A stretch of 62,807 nt of DNA, taken from IMG/VR virus record IMGVR_UViG_3300027732_000008. One strand, given 5' to 3'. The stretch comes from an uncultured virus (IMG/VR IMGVR_UViG_3300027732_000008) (lineage: Duplodnaviria; Heunggongvirae; Uroviricota; Caudoviricetes). The notes below the pieces were generated by a model, which did not search any database, was not told the DNA's origin, and was given only the letters and a program-made list of their open reading frames with translations. Shown here piece by piece: positions 8,601 through 15,757 of this stretch. Position 1 is the stretch's first letter; each line of letters begins with the position of its first letter. The translations under genes and the position numbers were made by a program.

Positions 8601-8950
8601 TTGACGCCTGCTTCCTGGCGTTCCATTTCCCATTCTAAATCTCTTGTGGCTTTGGCCAATTCATCTTGTGCGTCTATAGTGTCGTCGACGGAATCACGAA
8701 GCTTTTCTAATTTTTTTCTTAGCCTTTCTACTTCTTTGCTATTTTCACCGTGCTTTTTTGTTGCGGCGGCCAGTAGTTTTGCATTTGAGTCAAGAGCCTT
8801 GTCTAATGCGGCGCTGCCGGTGTTGGCTTTGCCAGCTTTGCCACCAGTCTGGCCAACAGAACCATCGCCTTTGCCTCGACCCAATTGTGAGGTCAGGCGA
8901 TTCATTGCGGATATCAATTCATCTATTTTATGATCAGCTATTTCAGCCAT
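5657..8950 (-). CDS. Tail tape measure protein
   Basis: 1097 aa, Ala/Gly-rich and helical, with a hydrophobic repeat region containing periodic Trp; adjacent to the tail chaperone-like genes. Confidence 0.8.
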   Translation of the reverse strand: MAEIADHKIDELISAMNRLTSQLGRGKGDGSVGQTGGKAGKANTGSAALDKALDSNAKLLAAATKKHGENSKEVERLRKKLEKLRDSVDDTIDAQDELAKATRDLEWEMERQEAGVKRFGKELLTGTGTVHQSLGGLAETFRGANTVVGKMLFGFAAGASFALGAMSDFAKDAAGVGGFADLGAFKVGSIRQAKTMSGLGDSFIKVIAESNQGFKSFGNGSQDAIENLSDLSRGFRNGSNFTRTLNNRLGKDFVKDVDRASVAVSELGMSQEAQATLMASIAQQTALSGKRGDDAVKASAKAFADTAESARKLSNTFGLSAEEVLKSINDFKRSLAGQTASTLGIEGAEDIKMALMKGTGMSDSDANQIALLMQDQQTRDKGMAFAIEKMGPEFADTINAIGRGADAGGAGGRNGKFDSGAYSAQMQREAAGLAAGGASSYNVGDLKYMEAKQRQLNFGTTIGQAATNEEAEKKAKKDLGGTTSEAGNIKTMNQLDMALNSLRGAVQWLNATMIGVLGLLTPLVFGGIGMALFGGSGGLAKIGSILGGALGKGAGAASAGGKIVGGVFSKGAGSGVGGALSTVGDKAGGMFSKLGGAASSGMSSFGDFLGKLGDNKTIKGAGTLALLGGALALAAHGFKTFGEVTWEGMLKGTVALGGLIGIAKLLDKGSNSILKGAGVIAILGASLALSAIGFKVFNEVNWGSLVKGTLAIGGLVVMAKLLDKGSASILKGALVIGVLGATMWVAGQGFKSFNEVNWGSLVKGAVAIGILGVAASLLGGMSANILIGALAIAALGAAMWVAGKGFQTFNEVDWASLTKGAIALGILGAAVFALGAIMMSGVGALMFGAGLVALAALGVTAAGMGLALGIASVGMKPFAESLKMLGEVSGSNLMMVGLGLGAIALGMTAFAAAAIVAAGGGIVSGLLGLVGSKGPLERIMQMAPMADKIEKLGNGIKNFGTGLIDINAGLKGFDKDALGNFKDQLLEFAKAGASDEVRLTAQYLTQIGQAMTQMKDAGQIQLPSSSDMSIPGVSGTVPTAESLSSGESIVANRLNATPLTPEILTQALGYLASIVDDLDAIRGNTRGSEANTPVRLS
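6470..7045 (-). repeat. Four tandem 168-nt (56-aa) repeats inside the tape measure gene
   Basis: FxxFxEVxWxxxxKG units, with Trp codons at 6509, 6677, 6845 and 7013 (exact 168-nt spacing). Confidence 0.85.
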
Positions 8951-9051: not shown

Positions 9052-9945
9052 ATGGATAAAGAAAACCCACTCAAGAAGCCCGTTTCGCAGGCTACTGCCA
9101 ACCCGTTGGCAAATTTTTACCGTAGACCTGGCACCTATGTCAGTTTACCCAGTAAAGGACGATACTACAGATCAGCTATCAAACTGTCTGACAATGGAGA
9201 ACTGGCAGTTTATCCAATGACTGCCAAAGATGAACTAGCACTGAAGAACCCGGATGCCTTACTAAACGGCGAAGCACTGAAACAAGTGTTGGCCAGTGTA
9301 GTGCCGGACATCAGCAATGTTAATGAAATTCCAGCACCCGACATTGATATGATTTTGGTTGCCATGCGTATGGCCAGCTATGGCGATGACTTGGATCTAA
9401 ATGTAAATCACAATTGTGCGGCCAGTGAAGGTAAAAGTCAAAGTGTCACAGTTGGGCTAGGATCAATTTTAGGCACAATGAAAGAGATTCCAGACGGTTC
9501 CGGAGAAGTGGTATTGTCAAACGGTGTCAAAGTGCTGTTACGACCTTACTCACTGGAAAATCAAAGCAAGTTGTTGAGAGTACAGTTTACAACCATGCGT
9601 CAGTTGCAGGCCATGGAAGCCAATGAAAAGAACACCATTGATCAGAAAGCTGATGTGGCCAACAAAGGTTACGACATGTTGACCAATCTAAGCCAGGAAA
9701 TTTTAGCAGGCAGTATCATTGCAGTTGTACTGCCAGACGGAACTGAAGTGACCAATTATGGACACATTTATGATTGGGTCAAGAACTTGGATCGTGCCAG
9801 TGCCGATCGTCTAGATCAAGAAATGAAACTGTTTGCAGATTATGGTATTACACGCACATTGGAAATGACTTGCGACTATTGCAAGGAGAAGTATACCACT
9901 GATATGCTGTTTGACCCAACAAGTTTTTTCGGCGCAGGCTCTTGA
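9052..9945 (+). CDS. Baseplate hub assembly/tail assembly chaperone (T4 gp26-like)
   Basis: Motifs YVSLPSKG, VYPMTAKDEL, DIDMILVAMRMASYG, C-terminal CxxC and FDPTSFF; AAGGA SD. Confidence 0.75.
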   Translation: MDKENPLKKPVSQATANPLANFYRRPGTYVSLPSKGRYYRSAIKLSDNGELAVYPMTAKDELALKNPDALLNGEALKQVLASVVPDISNVNEIPAPDIDMILVAMRMASYGDDLDLNVNHNCAASEGKSQSVTVGLGSILGTMKEIPDGSGEVVLSNGVKVLLRPYSLENQSKLLRVQFTTMRQLQAMEANEKNTIDQKADVANKGYDMLTNLSQEILAGSIIAVVLPDGTEVTNYGHIYDWVKNLDRASADRLDQEMKLFADYGITRTLEMTCDYCKEKYTTDMLFDPTSFFGAGS

Positions 9946-9964
9946 TGTTAGGAACCAACGGAGC
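9924..9964 (+). promoter_or_regulatory. Putative -1 ribosomal frameshift signal (T TTT TTC plus downstream stem-loop)
   Basis: In-frame X XXY YYZ heptamer at 9924-9930. Stem GCTCT...GGAGC spans 9938-9964. The -1 frame is open into ORF 9945-10166. Confidence 0.6.
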
Positions 9965-10166
9965 AAAGATTAGACGCTTCGTTGAAGGTATCGAATCTGA
10001 TGCAAGAGCCCTGATCAAGGAAGTTACTACTTTGAGTGTTTGGGCAACCATAGACCCAGAAACCATTTGGAATATGACTCATTTAGAAAGAGTTGTGCTA
10101 TCCGAAGCAGTAAAAGAAAGAACAGAAGCAATGTATGGCAAAAAAGGATTTGCTCGCTCAAGGTGA
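9945..10166 (+). CDS. Tail chaperone second ORF (gpT/gp51-like), possibly a frameshift extension
   Basis: 73-aa ORF in the -1 frame overlapping the upstream stop (TGATG); contains an IWNMTHLERVVL motif typical of such C-terminal chaperone segments. Confidence 0.65.
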   Translation: MLGTNGAKIRRFVEGIESDARALIKEVTTLSVWATIDPETIWNMTHLERVVLSEAVKERTEAMYGKKGFARSR

Positions 10167-10184: not shown

Positions 10185-10245
10185 AGAGCGATTCTATCGC
10201 TCTTGAATTTCGCATTGCTTCGCAATCGCTCATTCAGTTTTTATT
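10185..10245 (+). terminator. Tandem hairpins followed by a T-rich tract (probable terminator)
   Basis: AGAGCGAT-TCT-ATCGCTCT (10185-10203), then TGAAT..ATTGC-TTC-GCAAT..ATTCA followed by GTTTTTATT. Confidence 0.55.
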
Positions 10246-10815
10246 GTTTAAGGTTTTAACGGTAAAGTATTGTAATGCAAGTGATGAAACATTTTGATTA
10301 CTTGACACTGATGATTCAGTCACACTTAGCCCTGTTAAGGACTAAGAGAAAACTTGACACCGAAGTCCAAGCCACATCCAACTAAAGAAACTTGTTAAAG
10401 TAAGGGCGGTCACGCTGTACCCTTTTACACTCATCTTATATGACGCTACCGTATTGACCTAGTTGAAATCGTCGATACAGCATGTAGGTTGTAATAGTTC
10501 ACCAGAGCCTACTCATTTTAGCTTTCGTATACTAATCCCAGTTCTTTTCAAGCAATTGAACTTCGTCCTGTGAAGGATAGTGGGCGTTAGTCTCTGCTAC
10601 TGCACAGAATTTCCTTCCCCAGCGCAACCCTAGTGCCTGGTTTTATGGGTGTCTAAATATATCGGCGACACTGGCCTATCAGTAGTGATCTTGTCGTTGT
10701 GAGTTTGCTAATTGAATTTGCGAAATCGCTGTGAGTGTCTACATTGCGTAGTAAATTAGCCAGGATGAGTTATTGTACACTTTAATTATCAAATGAGCCA
10801 GGTGAGTTATAGCCG
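10185..10815 (-). ncRNA. Candidate large structured non-coding RNA (~500-630 nt; ends uncertain)
   Basis: No ORF of 60 aa or more in an otherwise gap-free genome. About 10 hairpins, a C(UUCG)G tetraloop, G-U pairs that work only on the minus strand, and a possible pseudoknot. Confidence 0.6.
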
Positions 10816-10818
10816 TTA

Positions 10819-11247
10819 TTACAGCTTGTTTATTATGTGTGAGCCATGTACACGAACACTAATTTGTCCATTGTAATAATCTGTCGATTCCAATACTTTT
10901 CTATCAAATTGTTCTTTGGCCTCTATGTAAGAGCATACAGCCTTTGAATTACAGTAATGTAGAATCTCTCTAATAAAGTTATCTCTACCAAGAGATTCTA
11001 CATCTTTGTTCAACTGATCGTTGCTACCGTAGTATTCTTTCCAGTCTGAGTCAATCTTAGAACGAATACGCTTTTTCTTCTTGACTCCATTTTTCTGTTT
11101 GACCACTTTATAGGTAGTCTTGGAAAACTTTGCTAACTTTTTGCCAACATACATCCGCTGGTCAGTTTTATTTGTTATAAGATAAACAAAACCAACGCAT
11201 TCTTCGGGAAGTACATCTACCACAGTACCTTGATACAGCCAAGTCAT
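10819..11247 (-). CDS. Minimal GIY-YIG (Seg-like) endonuclease-domain protein
   Basis: Motifs GFVYLITN..MYVGKK, REIL, E..EQ and YYNG, with a Lys/Arg-rich insertion and no C-terminal DNA-binding domain. Confidence 0.75.
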   Translation of the reverse strand: MTWLYQGTVVDVLPEECVGFVYLITNKTDQRMYVGKKLAKFSKTTYKVVKQKNGVKKKKRIRSKIDSDWKEYYGSNDQLNKDVESLGRDNFIREILHYCNSKAVCSYIEAKEQFDRKVLESTDYYNGQISVRVHGSHIINKL

Positions 11248-11435
11248 TACTTGGGAGTTGACAGGGCTTCTTTCTCGGCTGTAATCTCTTTACGGCGTTC
11301 TTTGATTGCTTTGCTCATTTCTTGTAATGCTTTGCGAGCACGAGCGGCCGCGGCTTTGACACCTTTTGCAGTGAACTTTTCGTTTTCGCTTTTGTAGTTC
11401 TCAAACTGCTCTAACAATGTTTCGTGATTTGACAT
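11247..11435 (-). CDS. Small basic protein, histone H1-like (Hc1-like)
   Basis: EKFTAKGVKAAAARARKALQEMSKAIKERRKEI pattern. Confidence 0.65.
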   Translation of the reverse strand: MSNHETLLEQFENYKSENEKFTAKGVKAAAARARKALQEMSKAIKERRKEITAEKEALSTPK

Positions 11436-11446
11436 TTAATGTCCCC

Positions 11447-13225
11447 TTAGTTAATTTCATTTACCTGTGTGTCAGTATCAAGCATGGTGAATCCGTTTTC
11501 TTTAACAACCATAAGCACATTGTTGACTCGACTGGCCAACTCATCTCTATGTGAAATTAAGAAAATGTTCCGATTCATTTCTCTTCCCATGGCTTTTAAT
11601 ACAGCCATCGATGCTTCAATACCAACACTATCCATTCCAGAATCTACCAACTCGTCGATAAACAACAAGTTCATTGGCTCTGTAAAGCTTTCATACACAT
11701 CTCTAAAACTCCAGCTTAGTGCTAGAATTAAACGATTGCGTTCTCCCCTACTCAAATTATCAAAATCAAAAGTTTGACCCAATTGACTGATATCAACTTC
11801 CAAATCGCTTCTAAAAGAAACCTGATGTGGCAATTGTAACTTATCCAAGTAATAACCCAATCTGTGATTCAAATACGCAAGATTCTGTTCAATAATGCGT
11901 TTTCGGACAAATGAGTCTTTGCTTGTAAGTAATTTTAGTAAAAATTCCTGATGCTCTAGAAGCTTACTTACACGGTTAATTTCATCCCAGCTAACCTCTG
12001 CAAGGGCTGTATTTTTAAGAGCACCAATTTGTTCTTGATAAGGATCATGTTCGGCGATCCTGGTTTCCAATTGCTTTTTTGCATTGTCAAGATTATTTTT
12101 ATGAGCCATGGCATCTTCAACATTGATATATTTTGTTGAAGGACGATCTGCAAGATTACCAATTTGTTTGACTGTGGCATTGGCCTGATCCAATGCTGTT
12201 TGTTCTTCGGCCTTTGACTTTTCAATCAGTTCGATGGCATCTTCTGCTTTTGAAATCATCACATCATGTGTTGAATCATGAACCTCTTGCCCACAGCTGG
12301 GACATTGATGATCAACAATGGCTTCTAAATTAGATTGAGCCAAGGTCATGGCATCTGCTAACTTTTTAATGTTGCTCTGATGCATGGCCAGTTCTTTATT
12401 GGCTAACTTTAGGCGACTTTCATTTTCTTTGAATACCACCAACGAGCGATGCGCTTCGAGTTCAGCCTCAATGTCTGTATTTTCTAATTCCGTGATGGCT
12501 GAACCAAAACTGCTGATTTCATCTTCCTTCTTCTTGGTCCAAATACGGCTTCTGCGTTCTAAGTCATCAATGCTGGTTTGTACTCTGACATTACTTTCTT
12601 GCAGAGCCTTGATGCGAGCATCTTCATCTCGAATTACTTCTTTGCTAGATTTAATTTGTTCTCTAAGAATTTCAGCCTTCTCACTCAACTGTGTGATGCC
12701 CAGCAGTTCTTCAATGATATCACGCTGGTCTCCACTCTTGAGACTCAGGAACGGTTGTGTATAAGTGTTCAATGCAACCAAGTGTTTGAACATTTCAGCA
12801 CTCATGCCAACAACTCTATCAATGGCTTCTTGGGTCACTCGGTTTTCGCCCGCACCCTCATCGGTACCTGCTTCACTTACTTCTTGGTCGTCAACAATGA
12901 ATCTCAGCAAGTTGGGTTTGCGACCACGCTCAATGGTATACTTGTTGCCGTTTTTCTCAAACTCAACTGTAACAATCATGTTCTTGGCATTGGTCTTGTT
13001 GATCAAGTTTTCTTTGCGTATGTTTGTGAGTGCAGATCCAAATATGGCATAACTGAGTGCATTGACAATGGTGGTTTTACCCACACCATTTCTAGCACCG
13101 TCACCGCCCAGGTCTAGATTGTTACCCAGTACCAAGGTCATACCATACTGATCCATACGAAGAGCTTGGGTAACATTACCCACGCTCATAAAATTCTTAA
13201 TGGTTATATTTTTAAACTTGATCAA
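11447..13225 (-). CDS. gp46: Recombination nuclease ATPase subunit (gp46/SbcC/Rad50-like)
   Basis: Walker A GARNGVGKTT, zinc-hook CPSCGQ, signature LSRGE, Walker B LFIDE and ISHR. Confidence 0.95.
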   Translation of the reverse strand: MIKFKNITIKNFMSVGNVTQALRMDQYGMTLVLGNNLDLGGDGARNGVGKTTIVNALSYAIFGSALTNIRKENLINKTNAKNMIVTVEFEKNGNKYTIERGRKPNLLRFIVDDQEVSEAGTDEGAGENRVTQEAIDRVVGMSAEMFKHLVALNTYTQPFLSLKSGDQRDIIEELLGITQLSEKAEILREQIKSSKEVIRDEDARIKALQESNVRVQTSIDDLERRSRIWTKKKEDEISSFGSAITELENTDIEAELEAHRSLVVFKENESRLKLANKELAMHQSNIKKLADAMTLAQSNLEAIVDHQCPSCGQEVHDSTHDVMISKAEDAIELIEKSKAEEQTALDQANATVKQIGNLADRPSTKYINVEDAMAHKNNLDNAKKQLETRIAEHDPYQEQIGALKNTALAEVSWDEINRVSKLLEHQEFLLKLLTSKDSFVRKRIIEQNLAYLNHRLGYYLDKLQLPHQVSFRSDLEVDISQLGQTFDFDNLSRGERNRLILALSWSFRDVYESFTEPMNLLFIDELVDSGMDSVGIEASMAVLKAMGREMNRNIFLISHRDELASRVNNVLMVVKENGFTMLDTDTQVNEIN

Positions 13226-14244
13226 TTGGTAAGTCCCTGATAGATATGTGCCAGTATTTGTTTGTCAATGTGAGCAGAGTCGATGGCCTGTATTTGATTG
13301 AGTACAATTGCATCAACACTTTCAAATTTTATCTCTCCACCAGTCCACTCTGTTGCATGTTCTTCTGTTTTGCCGGGACTCAGACTGAGTTCTCGCATGT
13401 TGTATGCGTCTACCCATTGCTCTTTGATGTAGCTGGCTTCTTCATAACTGATGTCCACATCAATTGTGACTCTGGCAAAGGTTTGATTGTCAAACAGTTC
13501 TGCATGACGGTCAATGGCCTGAGTCAATGTAAGTGTTTTAAACTTGGGTGCTGAAGGCCAGGTTCTAAATTCTGGCTCTCCGCCGTACTCCAAGAACATA
13601 CAGCCACGCTCATCATCCCAAGCATCTGCATAGTTGTGTGGAAAGCAATTGCCCATGTACACCACATTGCCTCTGCGCTGTCGTTTATGGAAGTGTCCTG
13701 AGAACACCAGCTCTTGATTGGGAAAGTGTCCTTCGTTTAGTCCACCATGGTCTGGCATTTCTACCATGGCATTCATTTTAAAGTGTGGCAGTTCAAAGTG
13801 TCCAAACACATAGCGACTCTTTAACTTTTTCATGTCCTCCCATTCACTGCCAACCAGCCAAGGAACAATGGTCATGTCACCAATGGTGGTAATTTCATCT
13901 ATTAAATTGACATTGCTCAAGTGTTTGGCAAAGGGCAGTGAATTGATCTCTCGCTTCTCTCTGTATGCTAAATCATGATTGCCCATGATAACATACACCT
14001 GTTCAAAGTTTTCCGACAGATACTTGATATTTGACGTGGTATAGTTAAGAGTACTGACATTGACAGCGGACCTGTTGTTGTGCCAATCGCCAAGGAAGAT
14101 GCATGTTTCAGCACCTGCTTGTTTGGCTTCCTGGGTCATCCACTTGATAAAGTTTTCACAATCATCATTATGGGCTCTGCTGTTGTTTCTTAGGCCAAAA
14201 TGAATATCTGTAAAGCATACGGCTTTTTTAAAAGGTTGGGTCAT
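13222..14244 (-). CDS. gp47: Recombination nuclease subunit (gp47/SbcD/Mre11-like)
   Basis: Metallophosphoesterase motifs TDIHFG, LGDW, GNHD, GHFE and SGHFH. Confidence 0.95.
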   Translation of the reverse strand: MTQPFKKAVCFTDIHFGLRNNSRAHNDDCENFIKWMTQEAKQAGAETCIFLGDWHNNRSAVNVSTLNYTTSNIKYLSENFEQVYVIMGNHDLAYREKREINSLPFAKHLSNVNLIDEITTIGDMTIVPWLVGSEWEDMKKLKSRYVFGHFELPHFKMNAMVEMPDHGGLNEGHFPNQELVFSGHFHKRQRRGNVVYMGNCFPHNYADAWDDERGCMFLEYGGEPEFRTWPSAPKFKTLTLTQAIDRHAELFDNQTFARVTIDVDISYEEASYIKEQWVDAYNMRELSLSPGKTEEHATEWTGGEIKFESVDAIVLNQIQAIDSAHIDKQILAHIYQGLTN

Positions 14245-14247
14245 CAG

Positions 14248-14439
14248 TTAGTGTAACATTTCTGCAAGTTTTTGTCTACATCTTTCTATTTCTTCTTTGA
14301 TGTATAGTTTCTTCTTTTTCATTTCTCGGATCGACAAGTTGTCTTTGTAACTGGCCTCCATGGCATGAATTTTACGATCCATTTCATTGTGCGAGTTTTC
14401 CAAATGACTAATGTGATGTATTAGACTATCAGCATGCAT
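14248..14439 (-). CDS. DUF465/YdcH-like small coiled-coil protein
   Basis: HLENSHNEMDRKI...MKKKKLYIKEEI pattern; AAGGAG SD. Confidence 0.65.
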   Translation of the reverse strand: MHADSLIHHISHLENSHNEMDRKIHAMEASYKDNLSIREMKKKKLYIKEEIERCRQKLAEMLH

Positions 14440-14451
14440 TGTTGACTCTCC

Positions 14452-14820
14452 TTATTGTTTTAAAAATTGAGCCAGTTGTGGTGGCTCCCATCCTACAGGT
14501 TTTAATACCTTGCCGTCTCTACGCTTACGAACCTTGCCGGTCTCTGAATCAATCTTGGCAAAGTTTGTTTTCATAACTTCTTTCCACGCACCTTCTGCAT
14601 CGGCACCCATGCTGTGTATGGTACCAATGGTGACAACCAATATATCAATCAAGGCATCAAGTGCTTCGACATTGTCATTCATGTCACATGCGTGTTTGTA
14701 TTCTTTATATTCTTCTTCAATCAGTTTTGAGTACAGCACAAACTGAGGTAAGTTGTCCTCACCTACAGTTTGATCGCATGCCCGCATGAACTTTTCTTGA
14801 TCACGAAATGGATTCGTCAT
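14452..14820 (-). CDS. MazG-like NTP pyrophosphohydrolase (PRA-PH-like)
   Basis: Motifs LIEEEYKE, EALDALIDILVV, EVMKTNFAK and RRDGKVLKP.GW; start re-assigned to ATG 14820. Confidence 0.85.
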   Translation of the reverse strand: MTNPFRDQEKFMRACDQTVGEDNLPQFVLYSKLIEEEYKEYKHACDMNDNVEALDALIDILVVTIGTIHSMGADAEGAWKEVMKTNFAKIDSETGKVRKRRDGKVLKPVGWEPPQLAQFLKQ

Positions 14821-15757
14821 TTGTTGCTTCCCCTTCATCTACTAGAGTTGCGGCCAATGCTTCTGCATCTTTGAGAGCATTCAGTCGTTCAACTTCCGCA
14901 TGGTGATGTTGCGAACTTTCCATCTGACGAGTCCAACTTGGCATTTGTCCTGAGTTCTGTAACATATCATCGCGAATATCACGCTGTCGTTTTTCTACAT
15001 TAAGCACACGAGTAAAGCTATTTGTTACTGCGGCAGTGTAATAAGCAAATGGGTTTTGACTTTTGCCTTCATCAAACTGTAGTGCAATTTGTGTCAGCTG
15101 AATCAATGCCTGTCCACGCATTTCATCCACATAGCTGTAGCCTCGCCAGTTACTTCGTAAACTATAACGCTCGCATAGCTTTAAGAACATGGCACCTAGT
15201 CGATTGGTAATCTGTCCGTGTTCAACAGAAAAATTACCAGTCTTTACATCGCCCTTCCAATGACTACGCAATACTTCTCGCCATGTGCCATCTTCGTTGA
15301 TTACAAAATGTTTGAATGGAGGAAAGTTTACTTTACTACGATGGTCAGCAAGACTTTTAGGATTGTTTTTACGACCTGGTTCCAGTGGAATATGTTCAAA
15401 TGTCATGAGACGAACAACCAAGTCAGCAGTGGGAATCTTCTTGGCTAAAATTTCAAACTCATCTGCCTTTGGCTTGGTACTGGCTTTGCCGCCTGCGGCT
15501 TCCCAATTGGCCAATCCTTGCTTGTGAGCAATTTGGCTCAGCCTGCTGGCTCTGGCTTCTTTGGCCAGATTAATTGCACCTTCGGGACAAGCTTTTGTTT
15601 TTCGGTTATGAAAACTTTTTAAGTCAGCAACGATGTAGTCATACTGTTGAAATTCCAGGGATTCCTTCCAACAGTAACTCATTTTGCTACGATGTATTTC
15701 TGCAAGAATATCTTTGTTTTTAAGATAAACTGTTTTTGTTTTTTCTTCTTCTATCAC
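14801..15757 (-). CDS. gp55: Late-transcription sigma factor, T4 gp55-like, with a large insertion
   Basis: YLKNKDIL at the N-terminus; LGAMFLKLCERYSLRSNWRGYSYVDEM and FDEGKSQNPFAYYT..NSF..EK match the gp55 core; near gp47/gp46 as in T4; GTG start with AAGGAG SD. Confidence 0.85.
   Translation of the reverse strand: MIEEEKTKTVYLKNKDILAEIHRSKMSYCWKESLEFQQYDYIVADLKSFHNRKTKACPEGAINLAKEARASRLSQIAHKQGLANWEAAGGKASTKPKADEFEILAKKIPTADLVVRLMTFEHIPLEPGRKNNPKSLADHRSKVNFPPFKHFVINEDGTWREVLRSHWKGDVKTGNFSVEHGQITNRLGAMFLKLCERYSLRSNWRGYSYVDEMRGQALIQLTQIALQFDEGKSQNPFAYYTAAVTNSFTRVLNVEKRQRDIRDDMLQNSGQMPSWTRQMESSQHHHAEVERLNALKDAEALAATLVDEGEATNDESIS

Follow-up and report, generated by a model that had tools for sequence, protein, structure and literature searches.

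The described system closest to the locus reported here is the replication origin of plasmid ColE1. In the passages of PMC5043065 on this plasmid, RNA II enters a persistent hybrid and acts as the primer for synthesis, and the part of PMC4412123 that deals with it requires a run of rG in the RNA to pair with a run of dC in the template. Extension of the primer exposes a site where PriA is loaded (ColE1 sections of PMC3167613 and PMC5778457). The T4 origins oriF and oriG are treated in PMC4412123, in the part that covers them, as a promoter and a downstream unwinding region that lead to a persistent hybrid. For jumbo phages, the passages on origins and replication in a 2026 review (PMC13282480) name no origin.

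Part of the RNA studied here has been catalogued as Rfam RF01718 (Polynucleobacter-1), which appears in the table of Weinberg et al. 2010 (PMC2864571) with 16 members and is marked there as a likely cis-regulator. The RF01718 model has no assigned function and covers the 5′ third of our RNA alone; the 3′ 240 nt lie outside it, as do three of the pseudoknots, the repeat pair R1/R2 and the DNA hairpins. To our knowledge, nearly all large ornate bacterial RNAs are without an assigned function. In the open literature beyond PMC2864571 (subscription papers fell outside the search), we found no account of the full RNA, its repeat or its multi-copy form, and no description of a GIY-YIG gene with an RNA, of Rak2-type repeats or origins, or of the islands that we describe below.

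The locus and its genes

We analyzed a 62,807-nt stretch of DNA from an uncultured virus of the Caudoviricetes (IMG/VR record IMGVR_UViG_3300027732_000008), which we call the window and which is part of a 125-kb phage contig. Its gene set is T4-like, with portal, tape measure, baseplate hub, gp46, gp47 and a gp55-like sigma factor. Judged by the baseplate hub, the nearest cultured relatives are jumbo phages of the Rak2/GAP32 type (25–36% identity), and relatives carrying the window-type RNA are giant freshwater phages with genomes of 233–374 kb. The original prediction pointed to a large ORF-free gap here, and this held up: the gap is 653 nt long and is the largest of its kind on the 125-kb contig. 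The features that we found in and around it are given in Table 1.

Table 1. Features in and around the ORF-free gap of the window.
Feature	Position	Strand	Basis or comment
Upstream run: Hc1-like, gp46, gp47, DUF465, MazG-like, gp55-like late sigma	11247..15757	-	
GIY-YIG nuclease, single-domain (PF19835, phrog_447)	10819..11247	-	neighbour, probably a resolvase-slot gene
Lineage-specific spacer	10684..10818	-	missing from most homologues
Conserved structured RNA, ~385 nt, four pseudoknots	10300..10683	-	covariation, 117 homologues
5′ domain	10599..10683	-	covariation, max z 20, 20, 12, 17
RF01718 Polynucleobacter-1 match, 5′ third of RNA	10531..10676	-	90.8 bits, gathering 37, E 4e-18
Long hairpin 10480-10449, loop 10468-10462 pairs with 10382-10376	10376..10480	-	7/7 pairs change on both sides
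Most conserved core, stem 10428-10400	10400..10446	-	95-100% of cells paired
R1, internal copy of direct repeat (GTGTCAAGT)	10352..10360	-	proposed DNA-pairing segment
Final conserved hairpin, separating R1 from R2; not followed by a U-tract	10325..10346	-	covariation
R2, second copy, 10 nt past conserved AAGTGTGAC	10300..10308	-	proposed site of pairing between R1 and the template strand
AT-rich spacer, possible unwinding region (inferred)	10236..10299	-	
Two DNA-type hairpins, proposed helicase/primosome loading signal	10185..10235	-	window by eye; homologues compared

The RNA had been predicted to be about 600 nt long and unannotated, and both points have to be corrected. The conserved part is about 385 nt (10683–10300, minus strand); the rest of the claimed length is the lineage-specific spacer on one side (10684–10818) and AT-rich DNA with hairpins on the other (10299–10185). 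RF01718 matches the first 146 nt of the RNA, with its covariance model aligned over the whole length (positions 1–141), and the family cut-off was also passed by 16 of the 20 homologous loci that we tested. On the strength of this match, the window RNA is a member of RF01718 through its 5′ third. Rfam searches agreed with the prediction that it is not a tRNA, tmRNA, RNase P RNA or known intron. In most homologues no more than about 55 nt separate the upstream stop codon from the start of the RNA.

We made some observations on the neighbouring genes that stand apart from the RNA. A phage-encoded histone H1-like Hc1 protein (PF07432; 11247–11435, minus strand) sits between gp46 and the nuclease. 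The GIY-YIG protein (10819–11247) is labelled "NAD synthetase" in phrog_447 and in many GenBank records, a label that Pfam does not support. An extra ORF of 230–340 aa lies between GIY-YIG and the RNA in L018, L029, L066–L069, L075, L078, L080, L222 and L238, and neither is disturbed. On the plus strand there is a T-TTT-TTC slippery heptamer (9924–9930) in the last part of the "baseplate hub" ORF (9052–9945), and the -1 frame of a small overlapping ORF (9942–10166) is already open ahead of the heptamer. We take these to look like the programmed frameshift of tail-assembly-chaperone G/GT beside the tape-measure gene. An A-run matching the heptamer was found in 35 loci, with the full stretch present in 77.

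Structure of the RNA

Starting from the GIY-YIG gene, we kept 80 loci out of 267. Full-length copies of the RNA came from 65 of the 80, while contig ends truncated 6 and the 5′ pattern was missing from 9; these 9 include divergent forms and three loci without an RNA. A scan that started from the RNA gave 120 matches, all homologous. A pattern scan of GTDB was too loose, with 4 real matches in 120. In all there were 169 full-length copies, which reduced to 117 non-redundant ones at 93% identity.

Mutual information across the 117 homologues gave about 15 helices and four pseudoknots between 10683 and 10325. In an alignment of the 3′ domain (36 sequences), 86.5% of cells were paired and 34 of 46 pairs changed on both sides; none of 500 shuffles reached this, and sliding the structure along the alignment dropped the paired cells to 37–46%. 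At the 5′ end, 10683–10680 pairs with the loop 10602–10599, and the domain also has the stem 10640–10619 and a hairpin (10671–10649) with a small pseudoknot (10675–10673 with 10666–10664). A helix closing the 5′ and 3′ ends, which we had seen by eye, was dropped because covariation pairs the 5′ end with this loop instead. The loop of the core stem is contacted by 10446–10440 as two crossing helices (with 10415–10409).

The structural elements that had been listed from the single sequence are all present at, or within 1–2 nt of, the places given for them, and eight of the nine covary. These are the stems at 10619–10640, 10567–10578, 10541–10562, 10484–10512, 10449–10480, 10400–10428 and 10325–10346 and the pseudoknot of 10468–10462 with 10382–10376 (maximum z 20). 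The exception is the C(UUCG)G hairpin, which is confined to the subclass of the window, shares positions with the internal repeat and is not supported by covariation. The minus strand was also confirmed: in helices of at least three pairs we counted 866 G-U cells and 101 A-C cells, an excess which places the RNA on this strand. Folding energy, which had been suggested as a check, was no better than in shuffled sequences for the gap (z -0.03 and -0.55) or for the core (z -0.1 and -1.2). Since folding energy gives no signal, it is covariation that makes the whole case for the RNA. What stands of the predicted large, pseudoknotted, minus-strand non-coding RNA at the end of the gp55-gp47-gp46-Hc1-GIY-YIG run is its fold and its position; it is shorter than thought and partly in Rfam.

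Part of the stretch is present in 18 metatranscriptome runs. We examined four of these RNA runs, all as contigs, and found patchy cover, no enrichment and no joints, which is not evidence of expression. A promoter scan of the window found no sigma-70 promoter just upstream of the RNA, and blastn of the window or of the RNA from L017 against cultured phages gave no match.

There are also divergent classes of the RNA, in which the 5′ half is different and the 3′ end is the same, and which have matched repeats of their own (L050:1976–2400, L033:3680–4070, L053:1119–1460, L216, L248, L210, L245, L255 and L233).

A repeat that changes in step

Among the strongest covariation signals (z 11–20) were identities, rather than pairs, at a fixed offset. 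The 7-mer of R1, behind a conserved CTC (10360), is the same as the 7-mer of R2 (10308) in 106 of 114 loci, after 3 of the 117 rows were dropped for gaps. When the pairing of R1 and R2 was shuffled 2000 times over these 114 phage loci, the mean was 18 and the maximum 30. Along a spanning tree with 113 edges, 81 site changes occurred in both copies, 79 of them identical, and 13 in one copy. The copies are 47–65 nt apart with no helical phasing, and R1 is unpaired in the covariation map. This matched repeat, with one copy inside the RNA and the other just past its end, is new here, as is its change in step.

Between -1.5 and +1.2 kb, we found no fixed position at which a complement or a third copy of the repeat occurs. 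With matched change and no complement in cis, both copies must read something complementary to them, and this is either the template DNA strand or a product copied from one of the two. R1 should therefore be able to pair with its own DNA template strand. Leaving out the misaligned row L257, six of the nine mismatches between the copies are G in R1 and A in R2, and one is C/T. A G in R1 opposite the template of an A in R2 is a wobble, so these mismatches fit template-strand pairing. The base next to the repeat is G/A in 80 of the 114 loci.

Other origins for the repeat were considered and set aside. R1 lies at a fixed place within a conserved RNA, which does not agree with a target-site duplication, and the sequence varies too widely for a Shine-Dalgarno or promoter element.

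DNA-type hairpins downstream

Across the homologues, the 50 nt from R2 are 69% AT. Past this spacer, the first hairpin of the window (10235–10205) has a stem closed by GA/GA and an apical c(GAA)g triloop hairpin, and the second (10203–10185) is perfect. GNA triloops are stable in DNA. The pattern GA-RC-GN(1-3)A-GY-GW lies on the RNA strand no further than 200 nt from R2 in 68 of 112 phage loci, compared with none in seven other stretches taken from 76–114 loci and a background of 12 sites in 1.36 Mb of jumbo-phage DNA. It is also present in 10 of 11 of the islands described below and in 11 of 28 Rak2-type copies. The strict pattern misses the window's own hairpin, which has the extra apical hairpin, as well as 44 of the 112 phage loci and 17 of the 28 Rak2-type copies. 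We looked by eye at seven other sites with the pattern in four jumbo genomes and saw no second RNA there.

ColE1 has a single site with this pattern in the whole plasmid, at 1332 on the RNA II strand. This is presumably ssiA/pas, which lies past the origin. As a separate observation, the hairpin behind the K64-1 RNA (L419:2040–2070) has an exact 11-letter match to ColE1 just past its origin (L391:1320–1330).

Related RNAs in cultured jumbo phages

In Munch and XaC1, the same genomic slot is an unannotated gap that holds another RNA, which we call Rak2-type. We found this element at 274 places in 62 phage records; there are five copies in Munch, BF, GAP32 and XbC2, and four were found in 121Q and XaC1. 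All copies are on one strand, about 50–85 kb apart in the five-copy genomes, and most of the copies listed have an extended -10 box just upstream. The element has no Rfam match. Its covarying helices follow the order of the window family, including three pseudoknots and the core motifs, and the repeat rule is kept in 27 of 28 copies (1 of 29 dropped; 12.7 expected from shuffles). The repeats of the Munch paralogues differ in step, and in BF, GAP32, XbC2, XaC1 and 121Q, five of the six multi-copy genomes, one hexamer is common to all copies.

The two classes have the slot and the repeat in common. Model searches from one class to the other scored weakly (E<0.05 in 2 of 22 loci, and one reciprocal match at E 0.26), and a profile search gave no match. 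Common descent of the Rak2-type and window RNAs, as suggested by the shared layout, is thus likely and not proven. We found no plasmids with Munch-type RNA. In two relatives, Atu_ph07 and Vibrio 2.275.O, the slot contains no gap.

In PA5oct (L396:7560–9070) and RsoM2USA (L398:6792–8194), both on the minus strand, the slot is an ORF-poor gap of 1–1.4 kb that our models did not recognise. These gaps may be further RNA classes. The one in PA5oct has a perfect sigma-70 promoter near 8935 with hairpins downstream. It is not among the four ncRNAs reported for this phage in Table 1 of PMC7318152.

Integrative islands

The RNA is also present, free of GIY-YIG, in islands of Polynucleobacter chromosomes. 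In the genus of the Polynucleobacter record G011, 13 of 121 genomes pass the Rfam cut-off. The 11 chromosomal copies that we fetched are all in one kind of island, with DUF6641, the RNA, a short tyrosine recombinase and two further genes, of which one is weakly primase-like; a clamp-loader-like ATPase is found in 10 of the 11 and an integrase within range in 7. One of two island proteins tested had a primase-like match (E 0.003). None of the 11 has a GIY-YIG gene.

The islands keep R1=R2 with new sequences: the match is exact in 8 of 11, a number reached by 1 of 5000 shuffles, and is 6/7 or better in 10 of 11. In G122, the repeats of the copies differ in step. The RNA, the matched repeat and the DNA hairpins move as one cassette through jumbo phages and islands, without GIY-YIG. 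One E. coli island, at ffs, carries the Rak2-type RNA.

The islands L467–L477 look like an undescribed family of low-GC integrative islands with two tyrosine recombinases, a clamp-loader-like ATPase and DUF6641, and they are candidate satellites of these jumbo phages. For the 303-aa ORF that precedes the RNA in the E. coli island, the sole match was a weak one to Lin1244_N (E 0.02). About 400 nt behind the main RNA of this island there is a second weak model match (L449:12957–13125, E 0.012) with the look of repeat, hairpin and repeat.

The GIY-YIG gene is a neighbour

The original prediction placed the RNA directly downstream of the GIY-YIG gene, and a tie between the two did not hold up. In the 68 RNA-first loci with enough upstream DNA, GIY-YIG is adjacent in 60, further off in 2, inverted in 1 and missing in 5. 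Its slot is taken by a PD-(D/E)XK nuclease (PF24608) in L216 and L227, the gene is inverted in L210, and L248, L257 and L278 have none; in cultured relatives an endonuclease VII or a RusA-like resolvase occupies the same slot. Conversely, the GIY-YIG protein family is present in 420 cultured phage records, and the four that we inspected had no RNA gap beside it. A PDB sequence search with the protein gave E 0.07 at best. The window-type RNA is single-copy in each of seven metagenomic genomes searched, at a fixed locus, and is not mobile. With the gene replaced, inverted or missing in phages and the RNA carried by GIY-free islands, the gene order looks like synteny and not partnership.

It is highly improbable, then, that the RNA is a cofactor or guide of GIY-YIG in an OMEGA/HEARO-like RNP with R1 as the guide, even with the gene next door in most phage loci: such a partner would not be absent from all 11 islands, occur in so many phages without the RNA gap, or leave its RNA as one copy at a fixed, immobile place.

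Proposed function and alternatives

To the reading that we prefer, which draws on the comparison of sequences, we give about half of our confidence: the locus would be a cis-acting R-loop primer and origin cassette that resembles ColE1 RNA II. The original prediction offered a replication origin as the alternative to an RNA; in the best explanation that we have, the two are not alternatives, and the RNA would be the working part of the origin. RNA polymerase would make the RNA, which would fold during transcription with R1 kept unpaired. As the polymerase passes R2, R1 would pair with the template DNA strand and the bubble would stay open, so that a persistent R-loop spans the AT-rich spacer. 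The displaced strand, of the same sense as the RNA, could then fold into the GA/GA-closed GNA hairpins, and these would load helicase and primase through host PriA or a phage loader. The 3′ end of the RNA, either trimmed by RNase H or left by the polymerase, would prime leading-strand synthesis. Rak2-type phages would keep four or five such origins round a 350-kb genome, and each island would have a single origin next to replication-like genes of its own; the islands may be satellites of these phages. Some results do not help this reading. Fourfold-site skew showed no switch at the RNA in five genomes, with raw GC and AT skew following transcription; a 7-bp hybrid of R1 and template is short; and a primer does not account in detail for the large conserved fold.

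Other explanations have to be weighed against the primer cassette. We think it unlikely that this is a trans-acting ornate RNA, either a scaffold like GOLLD and ROOL or a protein sponge, with R1 and R2 both bound by a single protein and the hairpins acting as terminators or having nothing to do with the RNA. The size, the four pseudoknots and the presence on phages and mobile islands would suit it, and a hexamer common to all copies in five of the six multi-copy genomes is what a protein partner would give. However, a protein that shifts its specificity would hardly give as many as 79 identical double changes on 113 tree edges, the paralogues differ in step within Munch and within G122, an RNA-RNA contact has no complement to use, and the hairpins that travel with the RNA have GNA loops and no U-tract. 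A role in templated priming, where R1 of the folded RNA is the template for a primase or polymerase and the short copy jumps to R2 to prime the opposite strand, also needs R1=R2 without a complement in cis, and the epsilon-to-DR1 transfer of hepadnaviruses is a precedent. Here the unpaired R1 and the weakly primase-like island gene are favourable, but a copied primer is suited by one of the nine mismatches (C/T) and template-strand pairing by six, and no RVT_1 reverse transcriptase was found in five of five genomes, in a search whose control matched in 3 of 14. We regard this jump as quite improbable.

The same R-loop might be formed for recombination-dependent replication or for packaging cuts, with gp46/47 and the nuclease of the resolvase slot and no direct priming. 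One copy is always beside these genes, and a GIY-YIG like the Ssn proteins could cut the displaced hairpin strand; in the part of PMC11893778 that describes them, single-domain Ssn proteins act on ssDNA, which they cut at hairpin repeats close to the genes that encode them. We have strong doubts about this version since three or four of the copies in Rak2-type phages and 11 of 11 island copies have no such neighbour and the nuclease is exchanged among unrelated folds. A self-splicing or self-cleaving ribozyme, group I-like or a permuted intron, is very unlikely: GAGACUA and UAGUCC in the window resemble P7 of group I, and the core is a compact double pseudoknot, but the P7-like words lack conservation and form the arms of other hairpins, there is no Rfam intron match and there are no exons, and no joints were seen in the contigs of four RNA runs.

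If the primer cassette is the right reading, the ColE1 principle, hitherto a special case of plasmids, would reach giant viruses and their islands, and there would be a compact RNA that makes a site-specific R-loop. The orphan motif RF01718 gains its full length here and a probable link to a multi-copy RNA outside the catalogue, carried by jumbo phages of E. coli and Klebsiella that can be cultured. A bolder extension is tentative, and we lean away from it: this may be a widespread family of pseudoknotted RNAs of 400–600 nt in which a reprogrammable 7-nt segment invades its own DNA, serving as protein-free replication initiators for a clade of jumbo phages (whose Rak2 group would have multi-origin genomes) and for the satellites that exploit these phages, and the core might process its own primer end.

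Comparison with known systems

Like GOLLD, ROOL and OLE, the RNA is large and pseudoknotted and is found on phages and mobile elements; none of these families gave an Rfam match. We know of no repeat matching their own DNA, and of no DNA hairpins, in GOLLD, ROOL or OLE. OMEGA and HEARO likewise have a structured RNA beside a nuclease gene, and bridge RNA includes a part that runs in the same sense as the DNA at its flanks. In contrast to all three, our locus is fixed by synteny and has no obligatory protein, no transposon ends and no variable guide taken from new flanks. We did not find the obligatory pair of nuclease and RNA on a mobile element, with a variable guide, that membership in OMEGA/HEARO implies, or the P7 G-binding helix and P3-P9 core of a group I intron.

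The T4 origins are similar in belonging to a T4-like phage, in the persistent hybrid and in being several to a genome. As described in the sections of PMC4412123 on them, they differ in having no large conserved structured RNA and no matched repeat.

With ColE1 RNA II, the window RNA has in common a long folded RNA with an internal segment of the same sense as the DNA near its 3′ end, followed by a GA/GA-closed GNA hairpin on what would be the displaced strand. Comparison of the homologues points to a segment inside the RNA that could pair with the template near the 3′ end, as in systems of the ColE1 type. In ColE1 the same-sense runs are two G6 runs (928–933 and 1175–1180) that are 247 nt apart, whereas the window has a mixed 7-mer about 52 nt from its partner. 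The window RNA also differs in its many pseudoknots and in being carried by lytic jumbo phages and islands rather than plasmids. We saw no counterpart of the antisense RNA I or of Rop, and a plus-strand promoter scan of the window was empty. The profile and model of the window gave no sequence or fold homology to ColE1, so the RNA is not a member of the ColE1 family. By analogy, the window RNA most likely works like the ColE1 primer.
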